This document shows positions 1 to 33,975 of a stretch of 42,657 nucleotides of DNA, piece after piece. The DNA is taken from positions 1-42,657 of the forward strand of contig JAZDFD010000013.1 in the NCBI GenBank assembly GCA_043808155.1. Direction: 5' to 3'. The notes under the pieces are model-generated. The model was not told where the DNA came from. It did not search any database and saw only the letters and a program-made list of their open reading frames with translations. The translations under genes and the position numbers were made by a program. This DNA comes from Candidatus Iainarchaeum sp. (lineage in GTDB: Archaea > Iainarchaeota > Iainarchaeia > Iainarchaeales > JAZDFD01). Positions within the stretch are counted from its first letter, which is position 1, and every line of letters starts with the position of its first letter.

Positions 1-900
1 GACTCAGGTTTTGTAGGGAAAAATCTATTTGCACTTGATTTGATTCTTATACGTGCAATTTCAGCAATTTTCACTTATAATGAAAACAAACTCTCAAAAG
101 CAGAGTACTTACCTAACTTTTTTTCATTTCCAGAACCGCACCTAAGCAACAACTCTTTAGAAAATCATGAATTCGAAACTTCAAAATCACTGAAAAGATT
201 AATTGAAGAAGTCACACTCTCAAAAAGAACAATATTGGAAAAAAACCCAGATTATTTGTTTATTGACGGTTCAATAATCCCCCAGCATCAGGACAAACCA
301 AGAAAAGATTCAAAAATAAAATCCCAATATCATGAACTTTTAGAAACCTTTCAGGATTTTTATGACACTGCAGAAAAAAACCAATGTGAATTAATTGCAT
401 GCGTTGAAGATTCACGGGGGAGCAGATTCAGAACAATGCTTCAGGAAGAAATTCTCCCAGAAGAAATCTCTCAGCTCCCTGAATTAGATAATTGTTTTGA
501 TTCTGTTTTGTTGGATTATCTTTTAAGAAAAGGCGAACGATGTTCTGCATTCACTTACACAAAAAGCATTAAGGATCACCCAATTCTAATGGATTATGAA
601 AAGAAATGGGCGGAAAAAGTCCATGCATTTTATTTAAAACCCGCAGAATTTGACAGGCCTTTACGTGTTGAATTTCTCTCAAATGGAAACATTCCAAAGC
701 AAGCTTCAAAAATTGCAGAAGTTGCATATGCCCAAAGTTCAATGCACCGCGAATATGCTTACCCCGCAGTTCTAATCGAAGCAGATATGCATGCAAGATT
801 AAAACCTGACGAAATAAGTATTGTATATGATAAAATCCTTGACAAACTCTCAAAAGGATTCAAAATTAAATTAAGAAGAGACAACAGACCTTTCAAGTGA
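1..900 (+). CDS. nurA: NurA DNA double-strand break repair nuclease (5' truncated by window edge)
   Basis: Frame is open from base 1 (DSGFVGKNLFALDLILIRA); motifs LFIDGSI, ACVEDSR and YAYPAVLIEADMHA typical of NurA; HerA lies just downstream. Confidence 0.85.
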   Translation, partial: DSGFVGKNLFALDLILIRAISAIFTYNENKLSKAEYLPNFFSFPEPHLSNNSLENHEFETSKSLKRLIEEVTLSKRTILEKNPDYLFIDGSIIPQHQDKPRKDSKIKSQYHELLETFQDFYDTAEKNQCELIACVEDSRGSRFRTMLQEEILPEEISQLPELDNCFDSVLLDYLLRKGERCSAFTYTKSIKDHPILMDYEKKWAEKVHAFYLKPAEFDRPLRVEFLSNGNIPKQASKIAEVAYAQSSMHREYAYPAVLIEADMHARLKPDEISIVYDKILDKLSKGFKIKLRRDNRPFK

Positions 901-1624: not shown

Positions 1625-3157
1625 ATGACTGACTTAGGAACTGTAATTTCAACCCCGGAAGGACCAAGTCCATCCTCAATTACATTTGTAGTAACTAAAG
1701 GCACTGTGCACAGAGGGCAGTTTGTAGAATTAGATTATTCGCAAGGAACAATGATTGCTTTAGTTTCCAATGTTTACAAAACAAACAGATATTTTGAGCG
1801 TGCAGAGTCAGTAAAAGAGTTTGAAAGTAATGGCACAAAATTAATGGAACAGTTCCCTGCTGCTGAGTGGGAATATTTAGTTGGTGAAACATATCCTTTA
1901 GGTGTTTTCAAAGACAACATAGTAAAACGTCCTACCTATCCCCCCTCACCCGGAACAAAAGTAAGATTAGCAGATTCAAAAAACTTAGAAAAATTCCTGA
2001 ACATTGACAAAGAACACGGAATTGAATTAGGTGAAATTGAACACCATAAGGTTCCTGTAAAATTAAATCTTTCAAAATTTTTACAAAAGCACTGTGCAAT
2101 TTTAGCACAGTCTGGTTTTGGAAAATCTTATTCTGTTTCAGTACTGCTCGAAGAACTTCTTGATAGAAAAAAAGAATCTGGAAGAATTGCGACTATTGTT
2201 TTAGACCCGCACGGAGAATACAGCTGTTTTGCAGAGCCAACAACCAATCCAAAATACAAAGACTACAGCAGCCAGACAACATTAGTGAAAGCAAGAAACA
2301 TAACAATCGGCGTACCAAAATTAAGTATTGGAATTCTCAGTAACATAATCCCTTCAATGTCTGGCCCTCAAAAAAGAGATCTCCAAAAAATAATTTCCGA
2401 TTTGCAAAAACAAATGAAAGAAGGCCTCGGACCTTTTGATTTGAAAACAGTAAAATCTGCTTTAATAAATGACAAAGAAATAAATGACAAAACAAAAAAA
2501 CTACTTTTGTCATACCTTGACAATTTGGAAGAACTGCGTTTGTTTGGAAAATTTGACAGTCCCTCAATTTCAGATGTTGTAAAACCCGGACATTTAACAA
2601 TAATTGATTTGTCAGACATTACTGACATGAAAAAGAAGCAAATAATTGTGAGTTATTTTGCACAAAAATTATTTTATGAAAGAAGAAAAAAATCAATACC
2701 GCCTTTCCTTTTAGTTGTTGAGGAAGCGCACCAGTTTATTCCTGAAACAGTTGCTGCAGAAAGTGCAATTGCAAAAAGTATAATGAAAACAATAGCAAGA
2801 GAAGGAAGAAAGTTCGGCGCATCTTTATGTTTGGTTTCTCAAAGACCAATTCAGCTTGACACCACAGTTTTATCGCAATGTAATAACAAACTCATACTCA
2901 GAATCACAAATCCTTATGATTTAGATCACATTGGAAAAAGTGCAGAAGGCATTGACAAAAATTCACAGCAGATGCTTACGTCACTCCGTGTTGGTGAAGC
3001 ACTAATTGTTGGTGAAGCAACAGGCCACCCTGTGTTTTTCAAAGTCCGAAAACGAAAATCACAGCCATCCAAACACGAAATTCCAATGGAACAGGCTGCA
3101 CGTGACTTCGAAACCAACTCAGAACAAAATAATTCCGACACTGAGCAGTTTTTGTAA
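1625..3157 (+). CDS. herA: HerA helicase/ATPase (HAS barrel + FtsK/HerA ATPase)
   Basis: KHCAILAQSGFGKS Walker A, LDPHGEY, LVVEEAHQF Walker B, AREGRKFG, SQRP; AGGTGA RBS upstream. Confidence 0.9.
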   Translation: MTDLGTVISTPEGPSPSSITFVVTKGTVHRGQFVELDYSQGTMIALVSNVYKTNRYFERAESVKEFESNGTKLMEQFPAAEWEYLVGETYPLGVFKDNIVKRPTYPPSPGTKVRLADSKNLEKFLNIDKEHGIELGEIEHHKVPVKLNLSKFLQKHCAILAQSGFGKSYSVSVLLEELLDRKKESGRIATIVLDPHGEYSCFAEPTTNPKYKDYSSQTTLVKARNITIGVPKLSIGILSNIIPSMSGPQKRDLQKIISDLQKQMKEGLGPFDLKTVKSALINDKEINDKTKKLLLSYLDNLEELRLFGKFDSPSISDVVKPGHLTIIDLSDITDMKKKQIIVSYFAQKLFYERRKKSIPPFLLVVEEAHQFIPETVAAESAIAKSIMKTIAREGRKFGASLCLVSQRPIQLDTTVLSQCNNKLILRITNPYDLDHIGKSAEGIDKNSQQMLTSLRVGEALIVGEATGHPVFFKVRKRKSQPSKHEIPMEQAARDFETNSEQNNSDTEQFL

Positions 3158-3192: not shown

Positions 3193-3579
3193 ATGCGTAG
3201 ATTTACAACAAATAAAAGACGGAATCCTGCAACCCGGGCAGATCATAAGCCCCCAAAAAATCCACTTAAAAAGAATGCTGTTACCACAAAAAAGGCTCAT
3301 ACAAAACTAACACCTGCTTTTGGGAAACTTGCCGAAGCCGCCCCTAAACATGGTTTAACAATAAAAAACCCAGGACAAGTAATGGCCCGCGAAGGAATTG
3401 AGCGAGACGCTGCAAAACAGATGTTTGTTGATTTTATTTTGTACAATAAAAAACTCAATGGTGTAACAATCACTGAAAGCGTGCGTACAGAAGCTCGAAA
3501 AACTGCGGACTCAAAAATAAGGAACCAGTATAATGTTGAGCGCAAAGTAATGCAAGAAGAAGCAAAACAAAACAAATAG
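3193..3579 (+). CDS. hypothetical basic protein
   Basis: 128-aa ORF filling the gap; K/R/P-rich N-terminus; no recognisable motif. Confidence 0.5.
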   Translation: MRRFTTNKRRNPATRADHKPPKNPLKKNAVTTKKAHTKLTPAFGKLAEAAPKHGLTIKNPGQVMAREGIERDAAKQMFVDFILYNKKLNGVTITESVRTEARKTADSKIRNQYNVERKVMQEEAKQNK

Positions 3580-3637
3580 TTCACCGGAAATGTACTCTTA
3601 CTAAGTTCTTTTTAAAGCGCAAAAATCTCTTTCTTAC

Positions 3638-5161
3638 ATGAACCCCAACACAAGCACAGTGCTAACTGCAGTAAAATATCTGCCCGAGAAAAAAGTAATT
3701 TATGCTGAATTTTCATGTGAGGGGATTAAGAGTACGGAAAAATTTGGTTTCTTTCCCTCACTCTTTCTTCCCATTACCCCTTTTACCGAAGCCCAGATTA
3801 AAGAAATAATAACTGAAAATGGAATAAAATGCAAAATTTTCATGCATGAAAACTCTGTTGAAATAATGGCTCCGAATTTTGATGATCTGAAAAAAATTAC
3901 AAATATTTTAAGTTCTCTGATAAACGCAACCCCTCTGCTAATAGAGCCTGAGCGTCAGTTTCTCATAAAAAAAGACTGGAGCTATTTTGACAGTTTCAAT
4001 TTCTCAGAAACTGAAATTGAAAAAACACATCTCACGCTCCCTAAAACCGAAGTTGAATTCTTATCTTACTCACTTCATGAAACATTAGAAGACGCACTTT
4101 TAAAGGATTCTAAAAGTGCAGAAGAACTCGCAAAAAAAATTGCAATTTCAAATATTCTTAAAGTCCCTCCTCTCAAAGTGCCGCTTGACAGATTTTCCCA
4201 GCTTGAAACTTTACTGGAAAATCTGTTTTTCAGGCACAAATATGTTTTCACAAAATCCACGTCCCAGAGAAAAGCAGTTGCTGTTAAAGCACCTTATGGG
4301 AATTTCTCTAAAATAACTGAATTTGATTTTTCACCCGTTTTAAATAATCTCATAACTAGGCCATTTTTCAATTTCGGAACTGATAGCTTTATGTGCGGTT
4401 GCTGTAAACCCGGTCCGATTGAAAAAGAAAATACCCTTCCTGATTCTCTGGTTGAACTTGAGTTTAAGGAGGATGGCATCTATTTTGAGTCATTCTCCTC
4501 TCATTTCTCCCAGCAGTTTCATCTGTTAAATCCAAATAAGGAAAAGAGATTGGCAAGAAAAGCAGAATATTATCTGCGTGAATCGCCAGTAGGACCTTTT
4601 TTTAAAAATCAAAAAGCATACTTACCCATTCCAGATGCCTCAAATTTAATTAAAGAAAAAAAAGCAGTTCCCACTGGAAATAAACACTTAAAGTGGTTCT
4701 GTACAAAAAAAGAATCTTTCATTTCAAAAGAAATTTCCAATATGCAAAACTTAATTTCATTAACCTCAATTGAAATCGAAAAAAAAGAAATTGAAAGTTT
4801 CAAAAATCACGGAATTAATGCAGTCACTTTTTTGGAATACAACCCCGAGCATTTTTATCTCTCAACTCATAGACGTGAAATGTCTGCACTTTTAAATTCA
4901 CTAATCCCCCACCTGACAAACAGCAACAGCAGATTCTATTCCTCAGAAATTGCAGATTCAATAAATGCAATAATCGATTATGCAATAACGAAATTCTCTG
5001 CGTTCACCTCTGAAAATGGAGGCAGATTCATACACTCAAATAATTGCAGAGTTTTCATAGAATCAGAATCCCCCTTAGCACTTGCAATGACCTTCTCTGA
5101 GAAGGAGAACTTCCCAACACCTATTATTATGAAAAACCACTCAATTATTGCTTTCCACTGA
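3638..5161 (+). CDS. inactivated, internally deleted family B DNA polymerase homolog
   Basis: Collinear degenerate PolB elements: FFPSLFL and IEPERQFLI (N-terminal domain), VKAPYGNFSKITEFDFSPVL (motif A), FNFGTDSFMCGCC...WFCTKKESFI, LLNSLIPHLTNSNSRFYSSEIADSINA (motif B region), GGRFIHSNN in place of YGDTD. Confidence 0.7.
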   Translation: MNPNTSTVLTAVKYLPEKKVIYAEFSCEGIKSTEKFGFFPSLFLPITPFTEAQIKEIITENGIKCKIFMHENSVEIMAPNFDDLKKITNILSSLINATPLLIEPERQFLIKKDWSYFDSFNFSETEIEKTHLTLPKTEVEFLSYSLHETLEDALLKDSKSAEELAKKIAISNILKVPPLKVPLDRFSQLETLLENLFFRHKYVFTKSTSQRKAVAVKAPYGNFSKITEFDFSPVLNNLITRPFFNFGTDSFMCGCCKPGPIEKENTLPDSLVELEFKEDGIYFESFSSHFSQQFHLLNPNKEKRLARKAEYYLRESPVGPFFKNQKAYLPIPDASNLIKEKKAVPTGNKHLKWFCTKKESFISKEISNMQNLISLTSIEIEKKEIESFKNHGINAVTFLEYNPEHFYLSTHRREMSALLNSLIPHLTNSNSRFYSSEIADSINAIIDYAITKFSAFTSENGGRFIHSNNCRVFIESESPLALAMTFSEKENFPTPIIMKNHSIIAFH

Positions 5162-5255
5162 TTTTATTGGCATATATGCTCCGATCTCCGCGCAAGGGTT
5201 TTTAAATCATACGCAGGGAACATTCTATACTATTATTCCAAAGAGACGATCATTT

Positions 5256-5462
5256 ATGGCTGATTTAACAAGATTTGAACGAACAAGATTAATTTCTGCA
5301 AGAGCATTACAGCTCTCATTAGGTGCACCTGCACTGCATAAAATTAAAAATGCAGTTTCTATGATTGATGTTGCAAGAACCGAATATGAAAATAAAGTAC
5401 TGCCGTTATCTGTTCTTAGAAAATATCCTAATGGTAGAATTGAAAAAATAGACCTTAGTTAG
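5256..5462 (+). CDS. rpo6: DNA-directed RNA polymerase subunit Rpo6/K
   Basis: LTRFERTRLISARALQLSLGAP...VLPLSVLR; in-frame ATG at 5256 preferred over the TTG at 5148. Confidence 0.92.
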   Translation: MADLTRFERTRLISARALQLSLGAPALHKIKNAVSMIDVARTEYENKVLPLSVLRKYPNGRIEKIDLS

Positions 5463-5471
5463 TGATTTTTT

Positions 5472-5756
5472 ATGGGTAAAGCGGTTCCTAAATCATTGAA
5501 AAGACGAGCTGAAATTCTGATGACAGAATTTCCAAAAGAAGTATCTTCTGATTTTGATAAAAACAAAGCCTTTCTAAATACAATGGAATTATCACTTTCA
5601 AAATCCCAAAGAAATCTTGTTGCAGGGTTTATTTCAAGAAAAACTGAAAAACCCGCAGCAACAGAACACAAATTTGCAAAGCCAAAAGAAACTGAACACA
5701 AAGCTGAAAAACCCGCAGCAACAGAACACAAATTTGCAAAACCTATTACAAATTAA
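5472..5756 (+). CDS. rps17e: ribosomal protein eS17 (S17e) with repeated C-terminal tail
   Basis: MGKAVPKSLKR..., DFDKNK, SKSQRNLVAGFISR match S17e. Confidence 0.85.
   Translation: MGKAVPKSLKRRAEILMTEFPKEVSSDFDKNKAFLNTMELSLSKSQRNLVAGFISRKTEKPAATEHKFAKPKETEHKAEKPAATEHKFAKPITN
5644..5740 (+). repeat. 37-bp exact direct repeat, 60-bp period, in the rps17e tail
   Basis: ctgaaaaacccgcagcaacagaacacaaatttgcaaa at 5644-5680 and 5704-5740 (EKPAATEHKFAK twice). Confidence 0.95.
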
Positions 5757-7820
5757 TTAGGTTCTAATTTCTATAAATTCGGGTTTTGTTACTCCATCAT
5801 TATTTTTGTCTCTGTGTAAAACATAAATATTAGACGAGGCCGCATTTTCCATTTCTTTATCATGGGTTATAACAAAAATCTGGCCCACAACTTCTGGAAG
5901 ATGTTCTCTCAGCATAACACTAAGTTCACGTATTGCTTCAGAATCCAGATTATGTGTAGGTTCGTCCAATATAAGCCAGCTTAAATTCTGGGTTAAAACC
6001 AATGAAAATGCAATTCTTATGCACAAAGCAGCCGAACTCCGTTCACCACCGCTTAAAATACCCTCAACACGGACCCATGCCCCTTCTCTCTGAAGTACTT
6101 TGAGTTCATAATTTCCGTCTTCAATTTCCATTTTGGCATTTGTATAATCTCCGTAAGGATAAATTCTCGGCCAGATATCACTCATTGCATTATTTATATT
6201 TTCAATCAGCAAATCCCTCATTTCTGCCTGAACTGCTTTCAGAGAATTAGTGAATATTGAAAGTTTATCAATATTTTTATCAATTCCCAAAATACTTTTC
6301 TCAAGTTCCTCCATACGCTGCGTTTCTTTTTCAATTCGTTCAATACTTTTCTCAAGTTCTGAAATCATTTCTATGTTTCCGGAAATTTCCTTTTCCGCAG
6401 ATAATTTATTTGATTTAATTTCAGAGAACGTCTCCTTTTCAGAACTTAAAAGTTTTTCATCAAACCCAAGATGTTTTATTTTCACTTTAACTTTTTCCAA
6501 TTCATTTTCAAGAACAGAGATTTCATTTTTGTTTTTTTCCACATCTGTTGCAAACAAAACTAAATCATTAATTTTAATTTCTTCTTTAACAAGCGAATCA
6601 GTTATTTCCTTAAGTGATTTAATCTCATGTTTGTGCTGTTCAAATTCTTTTTTCAAATCTGTGTGTTTCTTATCTAATTTTGAAATTTCCTTCAAATTCC
6701 CTGCGATTTCCTTTTCAGCATCTTTAATCAATTTCTCTTTTTTTTCATTACTCAGTGCGGTTTTACACAGTGGGCAATCTGCATCAAGTTCTTTGAATTG
6801 TTTAAGCTGTTTCCCTAGTTTTTCATTGCCAGATTTGTAAACTGCATCCTTTTCAGAAATTTCAGAAATGTGTTTCTGCAATCCATCAAGTGTTTTCTCA
6901 TTTGTTTCAATTGCCTTATTGCTTTTTTCTTTTTTTCCAGAAATTTCCTTAACCTCTTTTTCAAGCATTTCTTTTGTTTTGTTGCCAATTTTTTTCATAT
7001 TTTCTTCAAGTGTTTTTTTCATCTGCTCTGTTTTCGCAGAAAGTCTAACTCTCAGTTCTTCAGATTCTTTAAATTCTAATGCTTTCTTTTCAAGATTAGA
7101 AATTTTTTCAGAAATTTCTTTCTCGTCTTTCCCGAATAAATCAATTTTCTTTTCAAGTTCTAAATTATGTTTTTTCTTTTCACTAAGCCTTTTTTCAATT
7201 TCATTAACATTTTCATCTTTCAGTTCCTGTCTGGATTGTTCAAGCATCTTCTTTCTTTCTTTTGAAATATCTTTAAGTCTGTTTGAAACAGTCACAGAAT
7301 TACTTCTGACTTTTTCATATCTGTTCAGATTAAGAAGATCATCGAATTTGTCTTTTCTCTGTGCAGGACTAAGTCTCAAAAAGAAATCCAGCTGATTCTG
7401 TTCAGAGTAAACTGCTCTGCTGAACAAATCATAATTTATCTCAAGCAGTGATTCAATGCTATTTGTGACTTCTTTTGTTTTGGGTCCTGCAATTAATATA
7501 CCTTCTCGGTACAGTTTCCCGCTGTTTGTTCCGCCCTTGATTATACTTCGTTCAACTGAATATGATTTGCCATCATAATCAAACTCAAGCACAATTTTTG
7601 CATTGTCCATTGCAACTGGTTTTGCCATTATGGTTTCATCAAGACTTACACGTTTTGCATTTGCTGCAGGAAAGGTTCCAAACAAAGCAAAAGAAATAGC
7701 ATCCATCACTGCGCTTTTACCCGCCCCCATTGGACCCACAAGAACATTAGTGCCTGAACCAAATTCGAACTCACTATTTTTGTGGGTTTTCCAGTTTTCA
7801 AGCACAATTTTCTTTATCAT
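5757..7820 (-). CDS. rad50: Rad50/SbcC-type SMC ATPase
   Basis: GPMGAGKS Walker A, Q-loop YSEQ, coiled coil with central CPLC zinc hook, LSGGE signature, LILDEPT Walker B, ITH. Confidence 0.9.
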   Translation of the reverse strand: MIKKIVLENWKTHKNSEFEFGSGTNVLVGPMGAGKSAVMDAISFALFGTFPAANAKRVSLDETIMAKPVAMDNAKIVLEFDYDGKSYSVERSIIKGGTNSGKLYREGILIAGPKTKEVTNSIESLLEINYDLFSRAVYSEQNQLDFFLRLSPAQRKDKFDDLLNLNRYEKVRSNSVTVSNRLKDISKERKKMLEQSRQELKDENVNEIEKRLSEKKKHNLELEKKIDLFGKDEKEISEKISNLEKKALEFKESEELRVRLSAKTEQMKKTLEENMKKIGNKTKEMLEKEVKEISGKKEKSNKAIETNEKTLDGLQKHISEISEKDAVYKSGNEKLGKQLKQFKELDADCPLCKTALSNEKKEKLIKDAEKEIAGNLKEISKLDKKHTDLKKEFEQHKHEIKSLKEITDSLVKEEIKINDLVLFATDVEKNKNEISVLENELEKVKVKIKHLGFDEKLLSSEKETFSEIKSNKLSAEKEISGNIEMISELEKSIERIEKETQRMEELEKSILGIDKNIDKLSIFTNSLKAVQAEMRDLLIENINNAMSDIWPRIYPYGDYTNAKMEIEDGNYELKVLQREGAWVRVEGILSGGERSSAALCIRIAFSLVLTQNLSWLILDEPTHNLDSEAIRELSVMLREHLPEVVGQIFVITHDKEMENAASSNIYVLHRDKNNDGVTKPEFIEIRT

Positions 7821-7954: not shown

Positions 7955-8215
7955 TTAAAGGAGTGTTACTCCCTCAACTTCAACGTCCCTAACACCAGGA
8001 AGTGCTTTGATTTCATCTTCCAGTTTCGACATTGCGCCGTCTTCCTTATCTGGAATAACAACTGCAATCTTAACCAATTCCAAACCAAATGCAATAGGCT
8101 CTAGTCTTACTTCTTTAACTTCGCCATTCTTGATTTTCTTGACAGATTTTTCGATTTTCACAGAATCTTCAAGTTCCTCAGGATATATTTTCATGATTAT
8201 TAGTGCGTTACCCAT
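7955..8215 (-). CDS. ef1b: translation elongation factor aEF-1beta
   Basis: EPIAFGL motif; ATG at 8215 with GGTGA RBS; standard position after the Zn-finger gene. Confidence 0.92.
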   Translation of the reverse strand: MGNALIIMKIYPEELEDSVKIEKSVKKIKNGEVKEVRLEPIAFGLELVKIAVVIPDKEDGAMSKLEDEIKALPGVRDVEVEGVTLL

Positions 8216-8225
8216 CTGATTCACC

Positions 8226-8584: not shown

Positions 8585-9367
8585 ATGCTTAGAGAGTTGC
8601 TTATAGATGAATCTATTTTGCCGGATTTAGCCGAAATTTGTGGAATACATGCAGGTGATGGTTATCTCAGGAATGATGGCAGAAGAAGAGACTTAGACAT
8701 CAGTGGAGGTTTCGAAGAAAAAGAATACTATGACTCACACGTAATTCCTTTATGTGAAAAAGTATTTTCAACAAGCATTACTGGACGCTATTTCAACTCA
8801 AGGAACACTTACGGATTTGTTATTCGCGATGAAGAAATTGTTAATTTCATGCTTTCATTAGGGTTCCCAAATGGCAAGAAAACACTAACCGTCAAAGCAC
8901 CTGACTTTGTAATACACTCACGAAATTTGGATATAATTTATAGATTTATTCGCGGAGTGTTTGATACTGACGGTTGTTTGAACTTCCGTAAAAGAGAAGG
9001 TAGCAACTACGCGAAGTGCGATAAATTGAAACATAGCTATCCCCGCATTCAAATTTCATCATGTTCAACATATTTAATTGACGATTTAGCAGATCTACTA
9101 AAACGAACGGGGTTTCAATTTCGACAGTGTTATGATAAAACAAAACTTGAAAATTATAATGACAAATTCAAAATTTATTTGAGAGGTTACCAAAATCTTG
9201 AAAATTGGATGTTTAATATTGGTAGCAAGAACACATCTAAACTTTCAAGGTTCAATGTCTGGCAAAAATTTGGTTTTTGTCCACCAAACACTACTTTTGA
9301 ACAGCGAACCCAAATCTTAAATAATGAATTAGATCCTAATGTATTTTACAATGGGCCTATAATCTAA
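8585..9367 (+). CDS. free-standing two-motif LAGLIDADG homing endonuclease-like protein
   Basis: LAEICGIHAGDGYL and FIRGVFDTDGCL motifs; no Hint/intein termini; last codons overlap the tRNA. Confidence 0.88.
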   Translation: MLRELLIDESILPDLAEICGIHAGDGYLRNDGRRRDLDISGGFEEKEYYDSHVIPLCEKVFSTSITGRYFNSRNTYGFVIRDEEIVNFMLSLGFPNGKKTLTVKAPDFVIHSRNLDIIYRFIRGVFDTDGCLNFRKREGSNYAKCDKLKHSYPRIQISSCSTYLIDDLADLLKRTGFQFRQCYDKTKLENYNDKFKIYLRGYQNLENWMFNIGSKNTSKLSRFNVWQKFGFCPPNTTFEQRTQILNNELDPNVFYNGPII

Positions 9368-9455
9368 TGGACAGGATATCTCGCTTCGGCTTGTTTAAGT
9401 TAGTTCTTTTGCAAGAAGATACGAGACAATGGGGGTCCGAATCCCTCTAGGCCCG
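9353..9455 (+). tRNA. tRNA-Arg(TCG) with 31-nt intron (9390-9420) at position 37/38
   Basis: Acceptor GGGCCTA/TAGGCCC, D stem ATCT/GGAT, A20 Arg identity base, anticodon stem TCTCG/CGAGA, anticodon TCG 9386-9388, T stem GGGGG/CCCTC, G73, no encoded CCA; strict BHB: CTTC/GAAG helix, 3-nt bulges GGC and ATA, outer helix TTGT/GCAA. Confidence 0.93.
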
Positions 9456-9456: not shown

Positions 9457-10206
9457 TTATTCAATAAGCACAGAACTATTTTTTTCATATTCCGGAATTG
9501 TTAGTTCATCAACTTTTTCAGAAAAAGAATTAATCTGCTCGTAATAGGAAGAACCATCTTCTGATTCAATCCTTGCAAATACAATAAAATTATTTTTAGA
9601 ATCTAAACACAAATTTCCTGAAAATGAATCTGCAGTAATTTTGTAAAGCTTGCAATCGCGTTCATAGCTGTCACTCTCGCTTTTTTTTTCAACTACAATC
9701 AAATCACGTGCATTACTGACACTAAGTCCTCTAAGAAATGAAAAAATTCTTTCATTGTCAAAAAACCTATTGAAGTGAACAGGACTCAGAGAACTTTCAA
9801 CACATCCACTTTTACATTCAACAACAATGTCCTCCAAATACCACTTAGTGTCTTCTTCCTCAATTTTAATCAAATTTCCTTTTTTTTCAATGATTTGTTT
9901 TTTATTATATTTTTCTTCGTTTCCTAATTTTAATTTAACAGTTCTTTCAAGTGAAAATTCTTTTATGTTTTTCAAATTTCCGATTTTTTCAAAGAATTTA
10001 TCACCCTCACTTTCAAAATCCTCCGCTGCAGTTTCATCAGTTTCAAGAATAACATTTACAAGAGAATCTGAATTGGAATTTGTTACATTTTCAGAAATCA
10101 CAGCCCCATCATTCCCCCCATTAACAAAAATATCCTCTTCACTAATGCACCCACTAATCAGCAAAGAAAAAATAATTAATCCAAATACTAATCCACTTAA
10201 TTTCAT
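9457..10206 (-). CDS. putative lipoprotein / secreted protein
   Basis: MKLSGLVFGLIIFSLLISGC lipobox-type signal; ATGA overlap with the upstream gene. Confidence 0.7.
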   Translation of the reverse strand: MKLSGLVFGLIIFSLLISGCISEEDIFVNGGNDGAVISENVTNSNSDSLVNVILETDETAAEDFESEGDKFFEKIGNLKNIKEFSLERTVKLKLGNEEKYNKKQIIEKKGNLIKIEEEDTKWYLEDIVVECKSGCVESSLSPVHFNRFFDNERIFSFLRGLSVSNARDLIVVEKKSESDSYERDCKLYKITADSFSGNLCLDSKNNFIVFARIESEDGSSYYEQINSFSEKVDELTIPEYEKNSSVLIE

Positions 10207-13142
10207 GAACACCCACCAGTGAATGCATGCATTTTCGGATCACCAATTTTAATTTCAATCCCTGCAAGATATTTACTCCCTAAATAATAACTGTCTGCTA
10301 AAACACAACCATCAGCATATGCTTTAACAAAGTGATATGGGTCTGAATATTGATTATCAAATCCTGATGTCACAACCCCGCTACTGCCTGAAGCACCATC
10401 ATTAATCAAATCAATTCCCAGTGTTTGCGTAGGACTTGCATGCCCGCCATTATGAGAATATGCAGTGTTTGGTGCAATTAATTCTGAAATTGAACCTTTG
10501 AGCCAATTAACATTTGGGGTATGGTCGCAAGTCCATTCACTGTCAAAGTCCTTTCCACCGGAAATTAAAACCGCAACATTAGTTTCTGATAAATCACAGA
10601 CACTGTTGTCCTTGTCAACAATAACACTATTTGCAGGCAAAACTTCTGATGCTCTGTGTATCAAAGTATTAAGTCTGCATTTTGCATTGTTAGTTCCCTG
10701 GTCTAAATAATCAAACACCAATGTTTTTGATGCACCTGTATTCACTTCAAACACATCATCAATAAGCTGTTTTGAATCATCAGGCAGTAAATCCCCATCT
10801 GTATCATCAGGAAATGAATCAATACGCGTAACTAAATACAAATTTGAAATATTGAACTGCCCGCTCTCTGAATAAGTTGGTAAATTGGGAACGGGATTAA
10901 AGCCACACTCTTCTAACTCATAATCTTTGGTTTCAGTTCCGGCAGTTCCTGCATAGGGGTTTGGAGTATTATATCCGAACCCATATTTCACTAATGTAAG
11001 TGCAGAATCAACAGACGCAAGTACATCCCCCGAAGAATTAGTAATTTTCAGTGGCAGTCCTTTCATAAGCGCAATATATTTTATACCGCTAATTGAATCC
11101 AAACAAGTATCTACACCAGTCATTATCAAATTTTGGAAATCATTTTCTGAAATTGTTTCACTAGTACCAAGTCCCGCAATTCCACATTTTTGATTTTCTA
11201 TTTTATGAATTCCCGCATAATATTCTGCAAGTTTGCTTGAAGTTACATTATTTGCATTAAAAACAACAAGCACATCATCATAATCATAATATGCACCTGG
11301 ATTGTAAACTGGTACAATTCTTTGGAATGAACTTCCGCTTACATTTTCTGCATCTGTATTTCCTGCACTTGAATGTGCAATGCATCCAACATAATAATCT
11401 GTTTCGCGCAGCCCATTAACAAGTGGACATTTATATGTGAAATTATTCAGTCCTGCAACAAAATTATGCATTTCCTCTCTTCCGCAATATTTATTGTTTG
11501 GATTACTTACATCAATTGGAAGTGAAGGGTCAGTCACCATGTAACATTTAACAGAAACATTATTTTCCGCATTATCTTTATCAACAGTTACATCTACATC
11601 CAAAAGCGTATTCCTATAATCAATATTTCCGCTTGGAAGTATGTCATTAATTATTAAAGTAAAATTTTCAATAGGATAAGGAATTTTTTCTATTGTTCCT
11701 GCACTTACACCTGTGCTGTTTACCCAATCATTAGCACCATGCTGGTCATCCCTAACTCTGCACCAAATAGGATACGAGACATTCTCTGCAAAGTTTGTTA
11801 GGTTACAGCTGTAATTCACGTTTCCATTATGCTGATTTTCCAAAGTATTATTGCAAGAAATTGAAGTGTCACCTAAATTTCCTGCAAAGCATTGCACAGT
11901 CATGTTATCATTTTCAGTATCATTAATCGTGAGCGTGATTGCATAATTGGATTCCCATGTTTGAACTGGAGTTGTTGGTTCACCCATTACAGGTGCATCT
12001 GGTATATTGTTTGGTGCTTCGCATGTATCATGAATAGTGCACCTGTCTGATGCATTTGCAAATTTATCATAACACCACCACTCACCTGTTATTCCTGTTC
12101 CATATTTCGCTTCACAATCTGCAGGGAATGACGGATCATTTGGATCGCAATCTTCGGTATAACCTGGTTCATCATCTACAATTCCATTTCCACACAAACC
12201 ACAAACCTGCTCAGAATCACAATCATCATCATAACAATCACTTAATGAATCACAATCATTGTCTGCATTATCTGTACATTGCGTTTCTGCACTGCAAGAT
12301 GAATCTACTGAACAGTCGCTATCACAACAGTCAGTCAATCCATCATCATCTTCATCTTCGCCTGTGTTGCAATAACCAACTTCATTTTCTTTCTTACAAT
12401 CTAAATCGTCATCTTCATAATCTGTTTTGCCGTCACAGTCATTATCTATATTGTCATTGCATGTTCCCTGTGCTTCAGATTCTTCCCATGCGCCCTTACA
12501 TTGTGAATCCGCACAATCCTTGTAACTATCACAATCATCATCTAATCCATTGCTGCATAAAATAAAATTACTTCCATCACTCTCTGGTTTTTCAGTATCT
12601 CCTCCCAAATAATCAGGTGGACTCTGTGCTTCACAACAATCAATGTCATACCATTGGGCGTCATTTTTGCATGCGTTTTCAGTACACCTTTTATACGCTT
12701 GATTGCCACTCACATGTGCAATACAGTCCCCATAATAACAATCAGAATAATAACACGGATTTCCTGATTCAGAAGTTGTTTTACAATCATTATCAGTTTT
12801 TGGGACAAGATAAGGATCAAACTCGCAAATTTCCACCCCACAGGTTCCATTGTAACATTTTTCAACAACCCCCGGAACAAAACACGTAGTCCATTGAGTG
12901 TTAACACATTTTTTTATTCCCTCAATTTCACCTCCGCCAATTTTTACAATACAGGGAACTTCTTCGCCTTCTTCAACACAGGGATAACTAATACCTCCGC
13001 CAGTCTCAAGCGCCATATTTGAAACACCCTTTCCCATGCCCGCAAGAACTACAAGTACAACAGCAACAATAAGCAATGCCCCTGCAATAAGTAAAAGATA
13101 TTCAATCGCACCCTGAGCACGGGATTTGGATAGAGCCTCCAT
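10203..13142 (-). CDS. 979-aa class III signal-peptide surface protein: Cys/Asp-rich repeats, beta-rich middle, C-terminal TIGR03790-like domain
   Basis: RA|QGAIEYLLLIAGALLIVAVV N-terminus; DNDCDG..DC.D.DC repeats; CGNG..EDCD; C-terminal VLVVFNAN..S..LAEYYA, YIALMKGLPLKI, SVDSAL, LYLVTRID, IGDP. Confidence 0.7.
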   Translation of the reverse strand: MEALSKSRAQGAIEYLLLIAGALLIVAVVLVVLAGMGKGVSNMALETGGGISYPCVEEGEEVPCIVKIGGGEIEGIKKCVNTQWTTCFVPGVVEKCYNGTCGVEICEFDPYLVPKTDNDCKTTSESGNPCYYSDCYYGDCIAHVSGNQAYKRCTENACKNDAQWYDIDCCEAQSPPDYLGGDTEKPESDGSNFILCSNGLDDDCDSYKDCADSQCKGAWEESEAQGTCNDNIDNDCDGKTDYEDDDLDCKKENEVGYCNTGEDEDDDGLTDCCDSDCSVDSSCSAETQCTDNADNDCDSLSDCYDDDCDSEQVCGLCGNGIVDDEPGYTEDCDPNDPSFPADCEAKYGTGITGEWWCYDKFANASDRCTIHDTCEAPNNIPDAPVMGEPTTPVQTWESNYAITLTINDTENDNMTVQCFAGNLGDTSISCNNTLENQHNGNVNYSCNLTNFAENVSYPIWCRVRDDQHGANDWVNSTGVSAGTIEKIPYPIENFTLIINDILPSGNIDYRNTLLDVDVTVDKDNAENNVSVKCYMVTDPSLPIDVSNPNNKYCGREEMHNFVAGLNNFTYKCPLVNGLRETDYYVGCIAHSSAGNTDAENVSGSSFQRIVPVYNPGAYYDYDDVLVVFNANNVTSSKLAEYYAGIHKIENQKCGIAGLGTSETISENDFQNLIMTGVDTCLDSISGIKYIALMKGLPLKITNSSGDVLASVDSALTLVKYGFGYNTPNPYAGTAGTETKDYELEECGFNPVPNLPTYSESGQFNISNLYLVTRIDSFPDDTDGDLLPDDSKQLIDDVFEVNTGASKTLVFDYLDQGTNNAKCRLNTLIHRASEVLPANSVIVDKDNSVCDLSETNVAVLISGGKDFDSEWTCDHTPNVNWLKGSISELIAPNTAYSHNGGHASPTQTLGIDLINDGASGSSGVVTSGFDNQYSDPYHFVKAYADGCVLADSYYLGSKYLAGIEIKIGDPKMHAFTGGCS

Positions 13143-14584: not shown

Positions 14585-14711
14585 CTGTTCACGCTCAAGT
14601 CACTATATTGTATTTTCACTTTAATATATCTTATCCCCGTATTATTGGAAGTATGCTTTGTATCCTAAATCAGTGCGATTATTTATATATCACTTCTTTT
14701 ATTATATAATC

Positions 14712-16409
14712 ATGGACCCGCGATTAAGAGGCAAAGATCCTTTAGCAGAGAAAAAGGAGGAAAAAGAAGATCCAAAAGAAAAAACTTATGCACCACCAAA
14801 AAAAAATGAAAATGACCCAAACTCAGCACGCCCGCGAATAAGAGAGGCAAAAGGTCCAAGAATTGATTCTTATCAGAATGTTGAAATTTTTGACGGATTC
14901 CCCCATAAATTTTATGAAATAAAAAAGAAGGAATTCACGCCAACTGAAGAAAAAATGATTGAATTAATTGTTGATATTATACGAAAAAGAATTTCGATTG
15001 ATGAATTATCGAAAAATATAAAAGAAAAAGAAGTGAAAAACTTTGTTTTAGAACTCCGGGATTATATTGTGAAAAATTTAGAATTCAAAGGCGTACTAGT
15101 CAAACTCTCAGATCAAAAAACATATCTTGAATTAAAGGAAAAACTTTTGGAAATTGTAGACCCATTGAAATTCGTAAAAGATAAAACCTTATTTTGTAAT
15201 GAAATTCTTGCAAGAAGTATTGGTTATGGAAAAATAGACGTCCTAATGGATGACGGAGGTCTTGAAGAAGTTATGGTAAATGGTTTTAACAGACCGATTT
15301 TTGTTTTTCACAGACAACACGGAATGTGTAAAACCAATCTTGTAAGTGGTGGTAAAGAAGAACTTGAAGAATTAATTCTTAAAATTGCAAGAACAATCGG
15401 AAGGCAGTTCAATGAAAAACATCCGTTGTTAGATGCAAGACTTCCTGATGGGAGCAGGGCAAATGCAACTTATGATTATGCAACTCCGTTTGGCCACTCC
15501 CTGACAATAAGAAAATTCACACGCATTCCTGTTTCAATAATAAATCTTATTGAGAATAATACACTCACAAGTCATGCTGCAGCATTTCTTTGGGTAATGG
15601 TTGAAGGAATGCATGTAGAACCAATGAATATAATTATTACAGGCGGTGCATCCTCTGGGAAAACAACATTATTAGACGCGCTTAGTGTATTTATCCGCTA
15701 CTCTGAAAGAATAATTACAATTGAAGACACTTTAGAATTAGATTTAGGTTCAAGACAGAATTGGATTCAGATGGAAAGCAAACCAAAAATAAAAGACACT
15801 GAAGAAGTAAGCATGGATGATTTGCTAAAGAATGCATTACGTATGCGTCCTGACCGTGTAATTGTTGGTGAAGTGCGTGGGCCAGAAGCGCAAACACTTT
15901 TTGCTGCAATGGATATTGGTCACAGAGGTATTCTTGGTACGTTACACAGTAACACTGCAAAAGAAATGCTTGTGAGATTAAAATCTGCTCCAATGAATGT
16001 TCCTGAAATGATGCTTCCGCTTTTAGATTTAATAATTGTAACAAAGCGTGTACATCATGAAGAAGGAATTAACAGAAGAATTGCACAAATCGCAGAAATA
16101 ACTCATATGGAAAACCAAGTTCTTCTGGGAAATGTTTTTGAATTAGATCCGAAAACAGAAAGAGTAAAATTAACAGACGTTCCAAGTCACACATTAGAAA
16201 CTCTTGCAGACAAAACAGGACTATCTAAAAAAGACATTAAACGAGAAATAATTGTAAGAAAAAAAATCCTTGAGTGGATGATTAAAAAAGGAATGCGCAG
16301 AAATCACGAAGTTGAAGAAACTGTACAGCTCTACTACCGAAACCCAAGCAAAATATTAACTGAAGTGTCAGATGAAATTAGTGCAGACAACATTGATTTA
16401 ATTAACTGA
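14712..16409 (+). CDS. type IV pilus/secretion ATPase (TadA/CpaF/FlaI family), separate from the main pilus cluster
   Basis: LEEVMVNG, LDARLPDGSR, GGASSGKTT, TIEDTLEL, LRMRPDRVIVGEVRG, GH..GTLH; ATG 14712 follows TATA-like TTTATATA. Confidence 0.9.
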   Translation: MDPRLRGKDPLAEKKEEKEDPKEKTYAPPKKNENDPNSARPRIREAKGPRIDSYQNVEIFDGFPHKFYEIKKKEFTPTEEKMIELIVDIIRKRISIDELSKNIKEKEVKNFVLELRDYIVKNLEFKGVLVKLSDQKTYLELKEKLLEIVDPLKFVKDKTLFCNEILARSIGYGKIDVLMDDGGLEEVMVNGFNRPIFVFHRQHGMCKTNLVSGGKEELEELILKIARTIGRQFNEKHPLLDARLPDGSRANATYDYATPFGHSLTIRKFTRIPVSIINLIENNTLTSHAAAFLWVMVEGMHVEPMNIIITGGASSGKTTLLDALSVFIRYSERIITIEDTLELDLGSRQNWIQMESKPKIKDTEEVSMDDLLKNALRMRPDRVIVGEVRGPEAQTLFAAMDIGHRGILGTLHSNTAKEMLVRLKSAPMNVPEMMLPLLDLIIVTKRVHHEEGINRRIAQIAEITHMENQVLLGNVFELDPKTERVKLTDVPSHTLETLADKTGLSKKDIKREIIVRKKILEWMIKKGMRRNHEVEETVQLYYRNPSKILTEVSDEISADNIDLIN

Positions 16410-31813: not shown

Positions 31814-32137
31814 TTAATTTGCATCTACTAAGATATTTACAAGACCAGTTGAATTTTCAACTTTAAGTTTAACTCTATTTTCTAAATCCGTAGTATTCCC
31901 GGGGTTTCCGGACAAATTTATCGTAAGCGTATTTGTTGCAGTATCAAAATTTACATTAGTTATATAATAAAATTCATCTTGTTCCGAGAGCCAGCTTAAA
32001 GTTTCAGATTTTGCAATAAGCATTGCATTTGTAGTGTCCTGCTCTGCAAAGTGATATCCTGCAATTACAATCGCAAGACTAAAAATAACAAGTGTAAGAA
32101 GAAGAAACTCAAAACTAAGTTGGCCTTTCCGATTCAC
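31814..32137 (-). CDS. pilin-like protein (class III signal peptide)
   Basis: RKG|QLSFEFLLL, GTG start. Confidence 0.8.
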   Translation of the reverse strand: MNRKGQLSFEFLLLTLVIFSLAIVIAGYHFAEQDTTNAMLIAKSETLSWLSEQDEFYYITNVNFDTATNTLTINLSGNPGNTTDLENRVKLKVENSTGLVNILVDAN

Positions 32138-32145
32138 AAGACCAC

Positions 32146-32628
32146 CTAATTTAATTCAACATCTCCGGAGTCTGATTCCACACTAACTTCAAAAAATTCG
32201 CCTTTATCCGTACTTGGATTGGTTAAATTAACGCTTCCACAATTTAGATTAACTGCGCCCAAATTTATTTTCGAAGTACATTTTGTATCGTCTGAGTCCC
32301 CGTCTGTACTACATGCGTCCACAGGCATACCATAAAGTTTAACTGAGAAAGCAACACTAGCTGGCGGACCCGAACTGCAGACTATATCTGACTCTTTTGG
32401 AACAAACAAATGCAAAGTTCTCTTGCCCTCGCCTAATGAGCTGGACATTTCATTTATTGCAGATGCTAATTTCTCAGCTGAAAGTTTTGTCTGCCCCAAA
32501 CGAGTTGTGTCTTGCGCTGCATCAATTGCAGGCTCAAGAACATTTACAGTAAGCAATTGTAAATAACCAAGACAAACTAAAATGATTAACATAAATTCAA
32601 TAGAAATTTGACCTTTTTTAGATTTCAT
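32146..32628 (-). CDS. pilin-like protein (class III signal peptide)
   Basis: MKSKKG|QISIEFMLIIL; ATGA coupling supports start 32628. Confidence 0.8.
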   Translation of the reverse strand: MKSKKGQISIEFMLIILVCLGYLQLLTVNVLEPAIDAAQDTTRLGQTKLSAEKLASAINEMSSSLGEGKRTLHLFVPKESDIVCSSGPPASVAFSVKLYGMPVDACSTDGDSDDTKCTSKINLGAVNLNCGSVNLTNPSTDKGEFFEVSVESDSGDVELN

Positions 32629-33740
32629 AATATTAAATTCCAAATCAAATCACCAACTATATTAAGCATCACATATCCTATTAATACTGCAGGCACAAAA
32701 GGTGCACTCATCTTTATTCTCATTTTATTTTCTAAAAGGCCTCCCTTTTGAAGCTTCTTCAGCTCAATGATTTCTCCATCAGTTACGCCGCGTGCTTTTC
32801 TTGCGGAAATAACTTCTCTGCCTTTGGGATTCATATATTCTTTCAGACCTTCCAAATTATTATCCTTAAAGTACTTAATAATTGTTTTTATCTCAATTTG
32901 CGGTTTCTTAATCACTTTCCCATTATTAAAAAGCATGGTTTCAGCAGGTATGTCTCCCTCTTCCAATTTATCAAGAGTGATTTCCTTTTCAAGCGCCTTC
33001 TTAGAATAAAAATAAAACTTAATCATTGCATAAACAAAAACAATCAAAATGTAAAGTATTACTGCACTATAAACCGCGCTAATTCCATTGTTGTAAAATG
33101 CAACTCCAAATACAAGGAATGCAACAACTTTCCTCACAAATCCCGACATTTTGTAAAATAAAAACATTGTTGGGAGAAGAACTAACCAATGAACCCCAAA
33201 AAATGCAATAATACTTGAAATTCCAACAAGCCCCAAAGTTGCCTCAATACTCACTTTCATTTTTTCTTTAATGTCTTTGATAATTTCTGTTCTCATTTCT
33301 GTTTTTTTATGTACTGCATTCACAGTAAGTAATGCACCATAAGGGAGCATTGCAAAAACTGAAAAAATAAAAAGTGAAAGCGGAAATATAGGAAGTGCAA
33401 TACTTTTGAATAATGGAATCTGAAATCCTAAATTATAAAGCAAATTAGGATTAATCGGATTTAGAGCTGCAAGTGCAGTCATTAATTTCACATCCCCGCC
33501 TGCCCAGACACCAATTTTCCAAAGTAAATATGAACCAAAAAATGTGAGAATAGTGACAACAACTGCAGTTCCAAGAATCATGTAATCATTGTAATAATAA
33601 CTCATAACCCCCTGCAGAATAAATCCCGAAAAAAGCATTGCATAATTCAATTTATTTGAAATAATCCTTTCCTTAAAATCAGTATAAGTTGCAATAATCA
33701 GCCCGATAATCGAAATACTGAATGCAACCAGGTAAAACAA
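32625..33740 (-). CDS. prepilin peptidase (A24), long EppA-like form
   Basis: YTDFKERII, WAGGDVKL catalytic Asp motifs, extra TM helices, LEEGDI, APFVPA. Confidence 0.9.
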   Translation of the reverse strand: MFYLVAFSISIIGLIIATYTDFKERIISNKLNYAMLFSGFILQGVMSYYYNDYMILGTAVVVTILTFFGSYLLWKIGVWAGGDVKLMTALAALNPINPNLLYNLGFQIPLFKSIALPIFPLSLFIFSVFAMLPYGALLTVNAVHKKTEMRTEIIKDIKEKMKVSIEATLGLVGISSIIAFFGVHWLVLLPTMFLFYKMSGFVRKVVAFLVFGVAFYNNGISAVYSAVILYILIVFVYAMIKFYFYSKKALEKEITLDKLEEGDIPAETMLFNNGKVIKKPQIEIKTIIKYFKDNNLEGLKEYMNPKGREVISARKARGVTDGEIIELKKLQKGGLLENKMRIKMSAPFVPAVLIGYVMLNIVGDLIWNLIL

Positions 33741-33751
33741 AATCCTCTCAC

Positions 33752-33922: not shown

Positions 33923-33975
33923 TTTAAACCACTAATATTACTCCGAGGTTATTTATATGTGTTTTTATGGGTTTA

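Follow-up and report, generated by a model that had tools for sequence, protein, structure and literature searches.

What becomes of a family B DNA polymerase (PolB) that has lost its residues for nucleotide addition, and what can such a protein still do in an archaeal cell? This question is raised by an open reading frame (ORF) on contig JAZDFD010000013.1 of Candidatus Iainarchaeum sp., of which we analysed a stretch of 42,657 nucleotides (nt), here called the window. The window is AT-rich (GC content 0.31–0.37) and its gene content is archaeal. An earlier note on this DNA had described the ORF as a catalytically dead, minimised PolB in a neighbourhood of double-strand-break (DSB) repair genes. 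We conclude that its product, here called the PolB-like protein, is probably no polymerase but an accessory factor of DNA repair or replication. Published sources are cited throughout for those parts of them that were accessible.

3638..5161, forward strand: gene of the PolB-derived protein, 507 amino acids (aa), stop codon included (ORF listing and translation).

Taken alone, the protein sequence has no match in Pfam, in NCBIfam or among PDB sequences (phmmer, E<=10). A word-indexed search yielded 38 homologues of 278–542 aa; the named ones, about 500 aa long, are annotated only as 'hypothetical protein' and belong to Diapherotrites or unclassified archaea. When a profile of these homologues was compared with PDB sequences, nine distinct matches were found at E<=10 and all nine are family B polymerases, among them Pyrobaculum PolB, Pol epsilon, Pol alpha and E. 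coli Pol II. The best E-value is 0.1, which is not significant alone, and none of the 38 members matches the Pfam models DNA_pol_B (PF00136) or DNA_pol_B_exo1 (PF03104) even at E<=10. HMMER places three strings of the protein on motifs A, B and C of 5mdn_A: DFSPVL (residues 230–235, nt 4325–4342), EMSALLNSLIPHL (residues 414–426, nt 4877–4915) and GGRFIHSNN (residues 461–469, nt 5018–5044). Within this alignment 'ldfssvl' of the profile lies on 'LDFSSMYP' of 5mdn_A, and the motif C segment, reading HSNN here, on 'GIEVIYGDTDSLFV'. The PolB landmarks thus occur in the right order, as the earlier note had claimed. The AlphaFold2 model of the 507-aa protein is confident (predicted local distance difference test, pLDDT, 91.1; predicted template modelling score, pTM, 0.89). 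Foldseek found 254 matches to it in the PDB at E<=0.001, and the best 50 of these 254 are all family B polymerases, with 5mdn_A on top (E 1.0e-12, template modelling (TM) score by query, TMq, 0.55). A structure search of the ESM Atlas, started from its own model, returned PolB families in nine of nine rows (TM by query 0.57–0.63). It is the match of the predicted fold which settles PolB membership. The product of the ORF is predicted to have the PolB fold with N-terminal domain, palm and fingers, so that the palm and fingers expected from the earlier reading are indeed found in the model.

The reading frame itself is intact as described before: it is open from 3638 to 5161, and the opposite strand is closed by many stops. 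Its segments are as follows.

3638..3937, forward strand: N-terminal domain, residues 1–100, beta-rich with two helices (secondary structure of the model).
3938..4027, forward strand: residues 101–130 with the EPERQFLI helix (103–110) and the YFDSF two-strand remnant (116–120).
4028..4072, forward strand: variable linker, residues 131–145, in place of the exonuclease (0 of 15 positions conserved).
4073..4282, forward strand: three post-exonuclease helices (146–156, 158–174, 185–199), residues 146–215 (model).
4283..4405, forward strand: palm strand and helix, motif A remnant DFSPVL (230–235) and C253-x-C255-C256, residues 216–256.
4406..4693, forward strand: family-specific insertion, residues 257–352 (sub-model; predicted alpha/beta fold resembling the GINS B-domain).
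4694..4933, forward strand: W353-x-C355, two long finger helices and degenerate motif B, residues 353–432.
4934..5158, forward strand: second half of the palm and motif C hairpin GGRFIHSNN (461–469), both Asp lost, residues 433–507.

Alignments of the whole model to PolBs in the Atlas begin at residues 2–21, and the profile alignment to 5mdn_A begins within residues 146–215. Between these lies the place of the 3'-5' exonuclease, a domain of about 190 aa in active PolBs, which is taken here by residues 131–145. The EPERQFLI helix is followed by motif A after about 110 aa; in PolBs of Thermococcales the equivalent distance is about 285 aa. This comparison equates the EPERQFLI/YFDSF block with what we take to be the RYLID/FDIE region of active PolBs, and in our reading YFDSF (116–120) is a remnant of the Exo I strand. 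Only this two-strand remnant is left within residues 113–145, and segments for Exo II and Exo III are absent. In the second half of the model two long finger helices span residues 361–420, followed by a palm helix (436–459), the motif C hairpin (461–475) and a last helix and strand (479–507). The protein terminates 38 aa past motif C and a thumb is lacking; the aligned part of 5mdn_A stops at residue 580 of 783, with about 200 more residues following there. From this layout and from the end of the alignment we conclude that both exonuclease and thumb are absent. The deletions proposed earlier are thereby borne out, with two distances corrected: the short gap between N-terminal domain and post-exonuclease helices is about 33 aa (113–145) and not about 40, and the ORF ends 38 and not about 35 aa after motif C.

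Which parts of this reduced protein are under constraint? Conservation was assessed in an alignment of 118 full-length members, that is, all proteins of 430–600 aa among 179 collected. A scan for the EPERQFLI peptide in one genome per GTDB species gave in addition 57 pattern matches, 35 of which were confirmed as relatives; these 35 loci (numbered with an L below) all come from Iainarchaeum or from unclassified archaeal metagenome-assembled genomes. The cysteines C253, C255, C256 and C355 are identical in 118 of 118 members and W353 is Trp in 115. In the insertion 10 of 96 positions are at least 90% identical, with single residues kept almost throughout (H295 in 111, R304 in 116, G319 in 118, P320 in 117 and D333 in 114 members). 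Outside the insertion, conservation is highest in residues 101–130 (at least 90% identity at 5 of 30 positions; E105 in 105 members, R106 in 112, Q107 in 110, F108 in 117, D118 in 100 and F120 in 116). The same threshold is reached at 5 of 100 positions in residues 1–100, at two of 80 in residues 353–432, namely W353 and C355, and at none of the 75 positions of residues 433–507. E194, in the post-exonuclease helices, is Glu in 104 members. The densest conservation is hence found in the EPERQFLI/Exo I-remnant block and in the segment from CxCC over the insertion to WFC, and not in the old active site. Judged from this alignment, the functional centre has apparently moved from the active site to the insertion and the four-cysteine site. 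The earlier note had overlooked this insertion of about 95 aa with its four invariant cysteines, although it is the site of most conservation.

The insertion sits in the palm loop after motif A, between CxCC and WxC, and the cysteines on its two sides are 99–102 residues apart. We infer that C253, C255, C256 and C355 together bind a structural metal, either Zn or an Fe-S cluster, and so clamp the base of the insertion. PolBs of Thermococcales have two cysteines at these places, which form a disulfide. In the Diapherotrites PolB of the PMC7544198 supplement NCECCK, about 11 residues and WFCENKKGF follow directly after motif A. In the same supplement, PolB fragments from marine sediment and one from Altiarchaeales likewise contain a string NC[EK]CCK. 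Because PolBs of Diapherotrites and Altiarchaeales show the same pattern, the 3+1 cysteines look inherited from active archaeal PolBs, and it looks as if the loop between them had grown in the PolB-like family, from about 11 to about 95 residues. This palm loop carries the P-domain in Pol epsilon, with CysX, a [4Fe-4S] site, at its base (yeast C665/C668/C677/C763, PMC6582351); in the human enzyme cysteines 654 and 663 are among the four ligands (PMC9581978). HMMER places the WFC of the family (C355) on 'TIC' of human Pol epsilon at chain position 747, within 'TICQRENSF', and by its spacing we take this cysteine as the fourth CysX ligand. P-domain and CysX are stated to be absent from other PolBs (Kazlauskas et al. 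2020, PMC7544198). As far as its accessible part goes, the same paper has no metal-binding domains so far detected in archaeal PolBs, and itself reports putative Zn-binding C-terminal domains in the archaeal PolB groups B6 and B10. A four-cysteine metal site at the CysX position may exist in some active DPANN-type PolBs and have gone unnoticed so far.

The insertion is kept in 33 of the 36 regions made up by the window and the 35 loci; L034 is cut by the contig end, L033 has no insertion, and L029 and L031 cover it at 85–89%. L033 is also short, at 350 aa, and may be degraded. A sub-model of residues 222–378 was built from a 31-row alignment, containing the window and 30 of the 35 loci (L002, L008, L016, L033 and L034 were omitted as near-duplicates or fragments), and reached a pLDDT of 90.3. 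Its high-probability Foldseek matches in the PDB are seven GINS chains, with probabilities of 0.54–0.96 and E-values of 0.29–0.96:

5ghr_B, Gins51 C-terminal domain bound to GAN: probability 0.96, TM by target (TMt) 0.70.
5ghr_D, Gins51 C-terminal domain bound to GAN: probability 0.93, TMt 0.68.
3anw_A, archaeal GINS: probability 0.84.
2e9x_B, human GINS: probability 0.69.
9e2z_A, CMG subunit: probability 0.66.
5ghs_D, Gins51C: probability 0.54.
8ouw_B, CMG subunit: probability 0.54.

Among the matches listed, the remaining rows have probabilities of at most 0.16. An Atlas search with residues 250–360 of the independent ESM model gave GINS B-domain families in nine of nine rows (Gins51_C, PSF1_C, GINS23_N, PSF2_N and SLD5_C, with 52–63 aligned residues). 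We regard a GINS B-domain-like fold of the insertion as a consistent lead at the level of predicted folds. A hidden Markov model (HMM) of the insertion found nothing below E 0.2 among the 648 ORFs of the window and the loci. An identity of the insertion with the P-domain of Pol epsilon was also considered and dropped, as no Pol epsilon chain is among the 50 Foldseek matches listed.

Next to the PolB-like gene the window contains the following genes.

1..900, forward strand: NurA nuclease (Pfam NurA, E 9e-15), its 5' end cut by the window edge.
Between NurA and HerA: a Zn-ribbon ORF, then a GNAT acetyltransferase (Pfam scan).
1625..3157, forward strand: HerA helicase, 510 aa (Pfam DUF87, E 5e-33).
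5148..5462: RpoK, between the PolB-like ORF and Rad50.
5472..5756: S17e, between RpoK and Rad50.
5757..7820, reverse strand: Rad50, 687 aa, with zinc hook (Pfam AAA_23, SMC_N and Rad50_zn_hook), convergent with the PolB-like gene.

In the relatives this context was surveyed over all 36 regions, whose 648 ORFs were clustered by BLASTP. The counts below are lower bounds, since only 27 regions have at least three ORFs upstream.

HerA upstream on the same strand, within 6 ORFs: 22 of 36 regions.
HerA upstream on the same strand, within 3 ORFs: 20 of 36 regions.
HerA immediately upstream: 10 of 36 regions.
HerA downstream, within 6 ORFs: 5 of 36 regions.
Rad50 downstream, within 6 ORFs: 21 of 36 regions.
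S17e downstream, within 3 ORFs: 17 of 36 regions.
RpoK immediately downstream: 13 of 36 regions.
NurA upstream, within 6 ORFs: 15 of 36 regions.
Alba downstream, within 2 ORFs: 10 of 36 regions.

Where HerA is adjacent, the gap to the PolB-like gene measures 18–183 bp. A quick maximum-likelihood tree, calculated from the 34 sequences that have 430 aa or more (without L033 and L034), shows the HerA context across the deep branches of the family. The 'DSB-repair neighbourhood' of the earlier note holds for HerA and NurA upstream and for Rad50 downstream; it had overlooked the housekeeping genes, of which RpoK and S17e stand in between. As these genes share the neighbourhood, a link to DSB repair is suggested only. 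When five unannotated neighbour clusters were compared with NurA by hhalign, no relation was found.

A complex of HerA (residues 1–495, 13-row alignment) with the PolB-like protein (residues 5–507, 38-homologue alignment) was predicted with the verdict 'weak support'. The score is 0.51 (runs 0.58, 0.51 and 0.44), the best of three controls scored 0.00, at least 84% of the contacts agree between runs and the partner pLDDT is at least 81. Of 157 solved complexes 116 pass the mark of this test, as do two of 215 mismatched pairs; scores up to 0.60 comprise 18 of the 157 solved complexes and both passing mismatches, a calibration which is only rough here as custom alignments were used. We know of no solved HerA–PolB complex, and it is therefore unlikely that the prediction recalls a known one. 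Judged by this model, the odds that HerA is bound are modestly raised.

Tentatively, we favour the explanation that the PolB-like protein is a non-catalytic, PolB-derived adaptor, likely a B3 duplicate, which docks HerA via its insertion. The adaptor role is proposed because the GINS B-domain (Gins51C, Psf1C, Sld5C) is a docking module of replication proteins. Most likely the gene arose by duplication of the B3-type PolB that the lineage itself possesses. The protein has lost the exonuclease domain, the thumb and the motif B and C residues for nucleotide addition; N-terminal domain, palm and fingers are retained as a scaffold, and a domain of about 95 aa was gained in the palm loop. Held at its base by the putative metal site, the insertion would, together with the EPERQFLI block, dock partner proteins, and the inactive core of the polymerase may have kept the ability to bind DNA. 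The partner might be HerA of the HerA–NurA end-resection machinery, to which synteny and the complex prediction point; we weakly favour HerA, with GAN or DP1 as the main alternative. That the protein is a repurposed and radically reduced PolB scaffold, as had been supposed in the earlier note, agrees with the predicted fold, with the selection described below and with an architecture which is not that of PolB2.

No active PolB or PolD gene was found in the window by a Pfam scan of its ORFs, and no canonical PolB in the window or the loci of the 35 relatives. Ca. Iainarchaeum andersonii carries the orthologue L001 on contig AQRS01000029.1, and the supplement of PMC7544198 lists for it an active B3 PolB (AQRS01000042.1, 789 aa) and the PolD subunit DP1. 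In this genome, then, an active polymerase exists elsewhere. The accessible part of that supplement contains neither the EPERQFLI string nor contig AQRS01000029.1, an absence which is no proof, and full-text literature searches returned no published description of the PolB-like family.

Several observations weigh against the adaptor at HerA. At the insertion, Foldseek gave no PDB match at E<=0.001; the Atlas rows for GINS reach TM scores of 0.40–0.46 by query and up to 0.60 by target, which is below significance; the insertion profile retrieved no GINS among PDB sequences, only three irrelevant weak matches; and with Pfam PSF2_N a single one of 31 members appeared, at E 0.063, so that there is no GINS signal at the sequence level. 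The isoelectric point of the PolB-like protein is 6.7, compared with 8–9.4 in most family members, and speaks against the holding of DNA. As for HerA, its gene is split from the PolB-like gene in about 10 regions by a VTT membrane protein, an Na/Ca exchanger or, in the window, an orphan ORF, and complex scores in this band are, by the calibration of the tool itself, mostly wrong for guesses that were not likely from the start. The Alba context forms one clade of 10 (Shimodaira–Hasegawa-like approximate likelihood ratio test, SH-aLRT, 100), nested among HerA-context rows, from which we conclude that the HerA linkage is old and was broken once. Finally, the conserved block also includes RpoK, S17e and EF1b, which have no repair role; therefore the synteny may reflect inherited gene order and not a functional operon.

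Some of these points lead to a different explanation, in which the protein is an adaptor of the replisome and not a repair factor, and its proximity to HerA is nothing but inherited gene order. The non-repair genes in the syntenic block would fit this, as would the fold-level matches of the insertion to Gins51C, Psf1C and Sld5C. Gins51C docks GAN and DP1N (PMC9023282), and Ca. Iainarchaeum andersonii possesses DP1 next to its B3 PolB. There are also weak leads to DUF1744, the C-terminal module of Pol epsilon (Atlas feature score 0.87; one of 38 members at E 0.018). These DUF1744 leads are at noise level, however, and the GINS matches stay below significance, while the adjacency of HerA persists over deep divergence and the HerA complex prediction passed, if weakly, where its controls scored 0.00. 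We therefore consider a pure replisome adaptor unlikely and keep to the adaptor at HerA.

Could the protein still be an enzyme, a polymerase or lesion extender that works with non-canonical residues, or a catalyst of another kind using H295, D333 and the cysteines? Precedents call for caution: PolB2 was predicted to be dead and proved active (PMC8764526, PMC11791011), and piPolBs polymerise without the first Asp of motif C (PMC7544198). At motif A, D230 is Asp in 90 and Asn in 15 of the 118 members, and E105, D118, E194 and D333 are further acidic residues with high counts. However, the first Asp position of motif C is Asp in 11 members only, no acidic residue is conserved in the motif C hairpin, and the whole C-terminal segment is without strongly conserved positions. 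Motif B varies freely; its Lys, Asn and Tyr-Gly are not conserved, and even within 'LLNSL' N420 is Asn in 14 and S421 Ser in 26 members. In the orthologues L021, L026 and L031 most of the motif C segment and the C-terminal palm is missing. Such a loss marks a subclade of 436–460 aa, in which L015, L016 and L026 are without the DFS string of motif A as well. With no thumb to hold a primer-template and without Exo II and Exo III segments, the protein fails every test for a member of an active PolB family, that is, carboxylates, motif B, exonuclease and thumb, and by its sequences the family does not appear to maintain a two-metal polymerase site. Motifs A, B and C are as eroded as the earlier note had it, and we hold a remaining catalytic activity to be very improbable.

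Within Iainarchaeota (Diapherotrites) the family is conserved. When 1.84 billion representatives were searched with the profile and without filters, 268 clusters (50% identity) reached E<=0.001, and 142 of these E<=1e-30; the best 150 of the 268 measure 116–546 aa and are of the same size or fragments, with no fused forms. With the profile, 37 proteins were retrieved at E<=10, without exception family members. The ratio of nonsynonymous to synonymous substitutions (dN/dS) was calculated for three unsaturated pairs: L001/L002 (0.16, dS 0.08), L015/L016 (0.21, dS 0.17) and L006/L008 (0.13, dS 0.56). Sixteen other pairs of more than 60% identity have a dS above 1.2 and were set aside. In the same genome pairs the values are 0.12–0.30 for Rad50, 0.05–0.13 for HerA and 0.06–0.10 for NurA. 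The orthologues are intact and under purifying selection within the range of these genes; the PolB-like gene is constrained like its housekeeping neighbours and is not a pseudogene. A decaying relic, be it a pseudogenised PolB copy or the remnant of a virus or mobile element, might be suspected from the eroded motifs, the two lost domains and the failure of the single sequence in Pfam, NCBIfam and the PDB, but we regard it as already refuted by these ratios and the invariant residues, by frames of about 430–570 aa which are intact across the 268 clusters and in 33 of 35 loci (exceptions L034 and L033), and by a fixed chromosomal context among housekeeping genes. A viral origin found no support either: tblastn against 50,697 phage records gave no match, and viral PolB models (BFVD) fit less well (best 5.7e-9) than archaeal ones (1e-12), in libraries that differ.

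A bolder version of the adaptor can be formulated. The protein would be an unrecognised subunit of archaeal replication or repair, in which a metal-clamped GINS B-domain on a dead PolB plugs into HerA and/or the GAN–PolD–GINS hub. We think this improbable, less so than a surviving enzyme. If true, it would be an archaeal parallel to eukaryotic Pol epsilon, in which a PolB scaffold without activity is combined with a palm insertion flanked by CysX and with docking on a GINS B-domain; and the palm loop with 3+1 cysteines would be a metal site and insertion hotspot of ancient origin, older than the CysX and P-domain of Pol epsilon. Since CysX and P-domain are described as absent from other PolBs in the accessible part of PMC7544198, the origin of such features would become testable in archaea. 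The family also points to a new partner, either for HerA–NurA or for the archaeal replication machinery, and the phylum concerned has no cultured model.

The remaining observations concern the surroundings of the gene. Between HerA and the PolB-like gene lies a lone Lys-rich ORF of 128 aa (3193–3579, forward strand), which has no match in Pfam or NCBIfam and no counterpart in the 35 loci and may not be a real gene. Just upstream of the start codon a possible promoter element was read directly from the sequence.

3609..3616, forward strand: TATA-box-like element TTTTTAAA, its centre about 26 nt before the ATG.

By what is generally known of archaeal promoters, TTTTTAAA is possibly the gene's own promoter, leading to a leaderless or short-leader mRNA. 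Several HerA ORFs of the relatives are very long (834–1488 aa in L002, L005, L007, L017, L018, L019, L025 and L033), as inteins that contain a LAGLIDADG homing-endonuclease domain are inserted in them; both HerA ORFs scanned (L019 and L005) match Pfam Intein_splicing and LAGLIDADG_3, and the HerA of the window is intein-free. With regard to the cysteines, a class-V aminotransferase (cysteine desulfurase-like, Aminotran_5 E 2e-130) is present in the fetched region of 11 of 36 cases; its carriers include L006, L008 and the Alba-context clade (L018, L019, L023–L025, L027 and L033), where it is two genes away from the PolB-like gene. This proximity may be coincidence or may be relevant to a cysteine-bound metal cluster.

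Rad50 of the window has EF1-beta as its upstream neighbour (7955–8224, reverse strand) and no adjacent Mre11. A crude search by regular expression (GNH[DE] plus an N-terminal DxH) detected no Mre11-like ORF in the 36 regions, in which HerA, NurA and Rad50 are present; Mre11 may be located elsewhere in these genomes or be absent. A tRNA of 103 nt (9353–9455, forward strand) scores 48 bits with Rfam and is not reported by ARAGORN, for which reason it probably contains an intron; an ORF of 260 aa with a LAGLIDADG domain (8585–9367, forward strand) overlaps its start with the 3' end. Two sets of type IV pilus/archaellum-like genes occupy 10203–13142, 14658–16409 and 31814–38669 and include two T2SSE ATPases, two T2SSF proteins, one prepilin peptidase and, each bearing a class III signal peptide, three further proteins, among them one of 979 aa. 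Near the end of the window an archaeal Nre protein is encoded (40694–42058, forward strand; Nre_N E 6.5e-92, Nre_C E 2e-38), from a family that in other archaea is tied to DNA repair and PCNA binding.

How does the PolB-like protein compare with known systems? With archaeal B3 PolBs it shares the fold of N-terminal domain, palm and fingers and the order of motifs A, B and C, but it is without exonuclease, thumb and the motif B and C residues, and its insertion of about 95 aa stands against about 11–17 residues in active B3 PolBs. The cysteine pattern NCxCCK ... WFCxxKK after motif A is common to it and the Diapherotrites PolB. A second relative to be considered is PolB2 (Dpo2), the PolB family reported as 'inactivated' by Rogozin et al. 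2008, which is likewise a divergent PolB paralogue with substituted active-site residues that coexists with a replicative polymerase. PolB2 is an active polymerase whose overall structure is that of a canonical PolB and whose exonuclease, though decayed, is retained (PMC11791011). It is a translesion extender with one motif C Asp and a D(K/R) motif, and its operon contains an inactivated RadA and the small helical protein arCOG07300/PPB2 (PMC11791011, PMC7544198, PMC4104785). By this description, as far as accessible, PolB2 is set apart, since none of its distinguishing features is seen in the PolB-like protein, which has no exonuclease domain where PolB2 keeps one; no RadA-type Pfam match turned up among the ORFs of the window and the 23 scanned cluster representatives, which do not comprise every ORF of the loci.

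To the GINS B-domain the likeness consists in a three-stranded sheet, a helix and a hairpin (PMC2861644), matched in the insertion by strands 318–321 and 326–330, helix 331–339 and strand 343–350, plus strands 271–276 and 281–283. There is no detectable sequence similarity, the insertion has two extra helices (288–310), and it is nested in another domain and flanked by cysteines, whereas the GINS B-domain is tethered by a linker. A fold of this type was recruited at least into archaeal PriS as well (PMC2861644). The catalytic module of Pol epsilon carries its insertion in the same palm loop after motif A, also with 3+1 flanking cysteines, for the first three of which the equivalence follows from position only. 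Their spacing to the fourth is 99–102 residues here and 86–98 in yeast Pol epsilon (C665/C668/C677 to C763, PMC6582351). The pattern is CxCC here and Cx2Cx8C there, the PolB-like protein is no polymerase, and its insertion model has no match to the P-domain among the Foldseek rows listed.

Inactivated polymerases as scaffolds are already known: the C-terminal half of Pol epsilon is one, and PolB2 was long thought to be another. Structural precedents for catalytically dead PolBs are the C-terminal module of Pol epsilon, poxvirus F12 and the helicase-fused dead pPolBs of polinton-like viruses (PMC2669801, PMC4304020, PMC5499653). These keep larger bodies of exonuclease plus polymerase or are fused to other enzymes, and in the accessible parts of these papers none is reported with the same loss of domains or with a B-domain-like insertion. 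The PolB-like protein is a step beyond these: two whole domains were dropped, and selection appears to have shifted to an inserted module and a four-cysteine site, which would show how a replicative enzyme can be converted into an adaptor in the reduced genomes of DPANN archaea.

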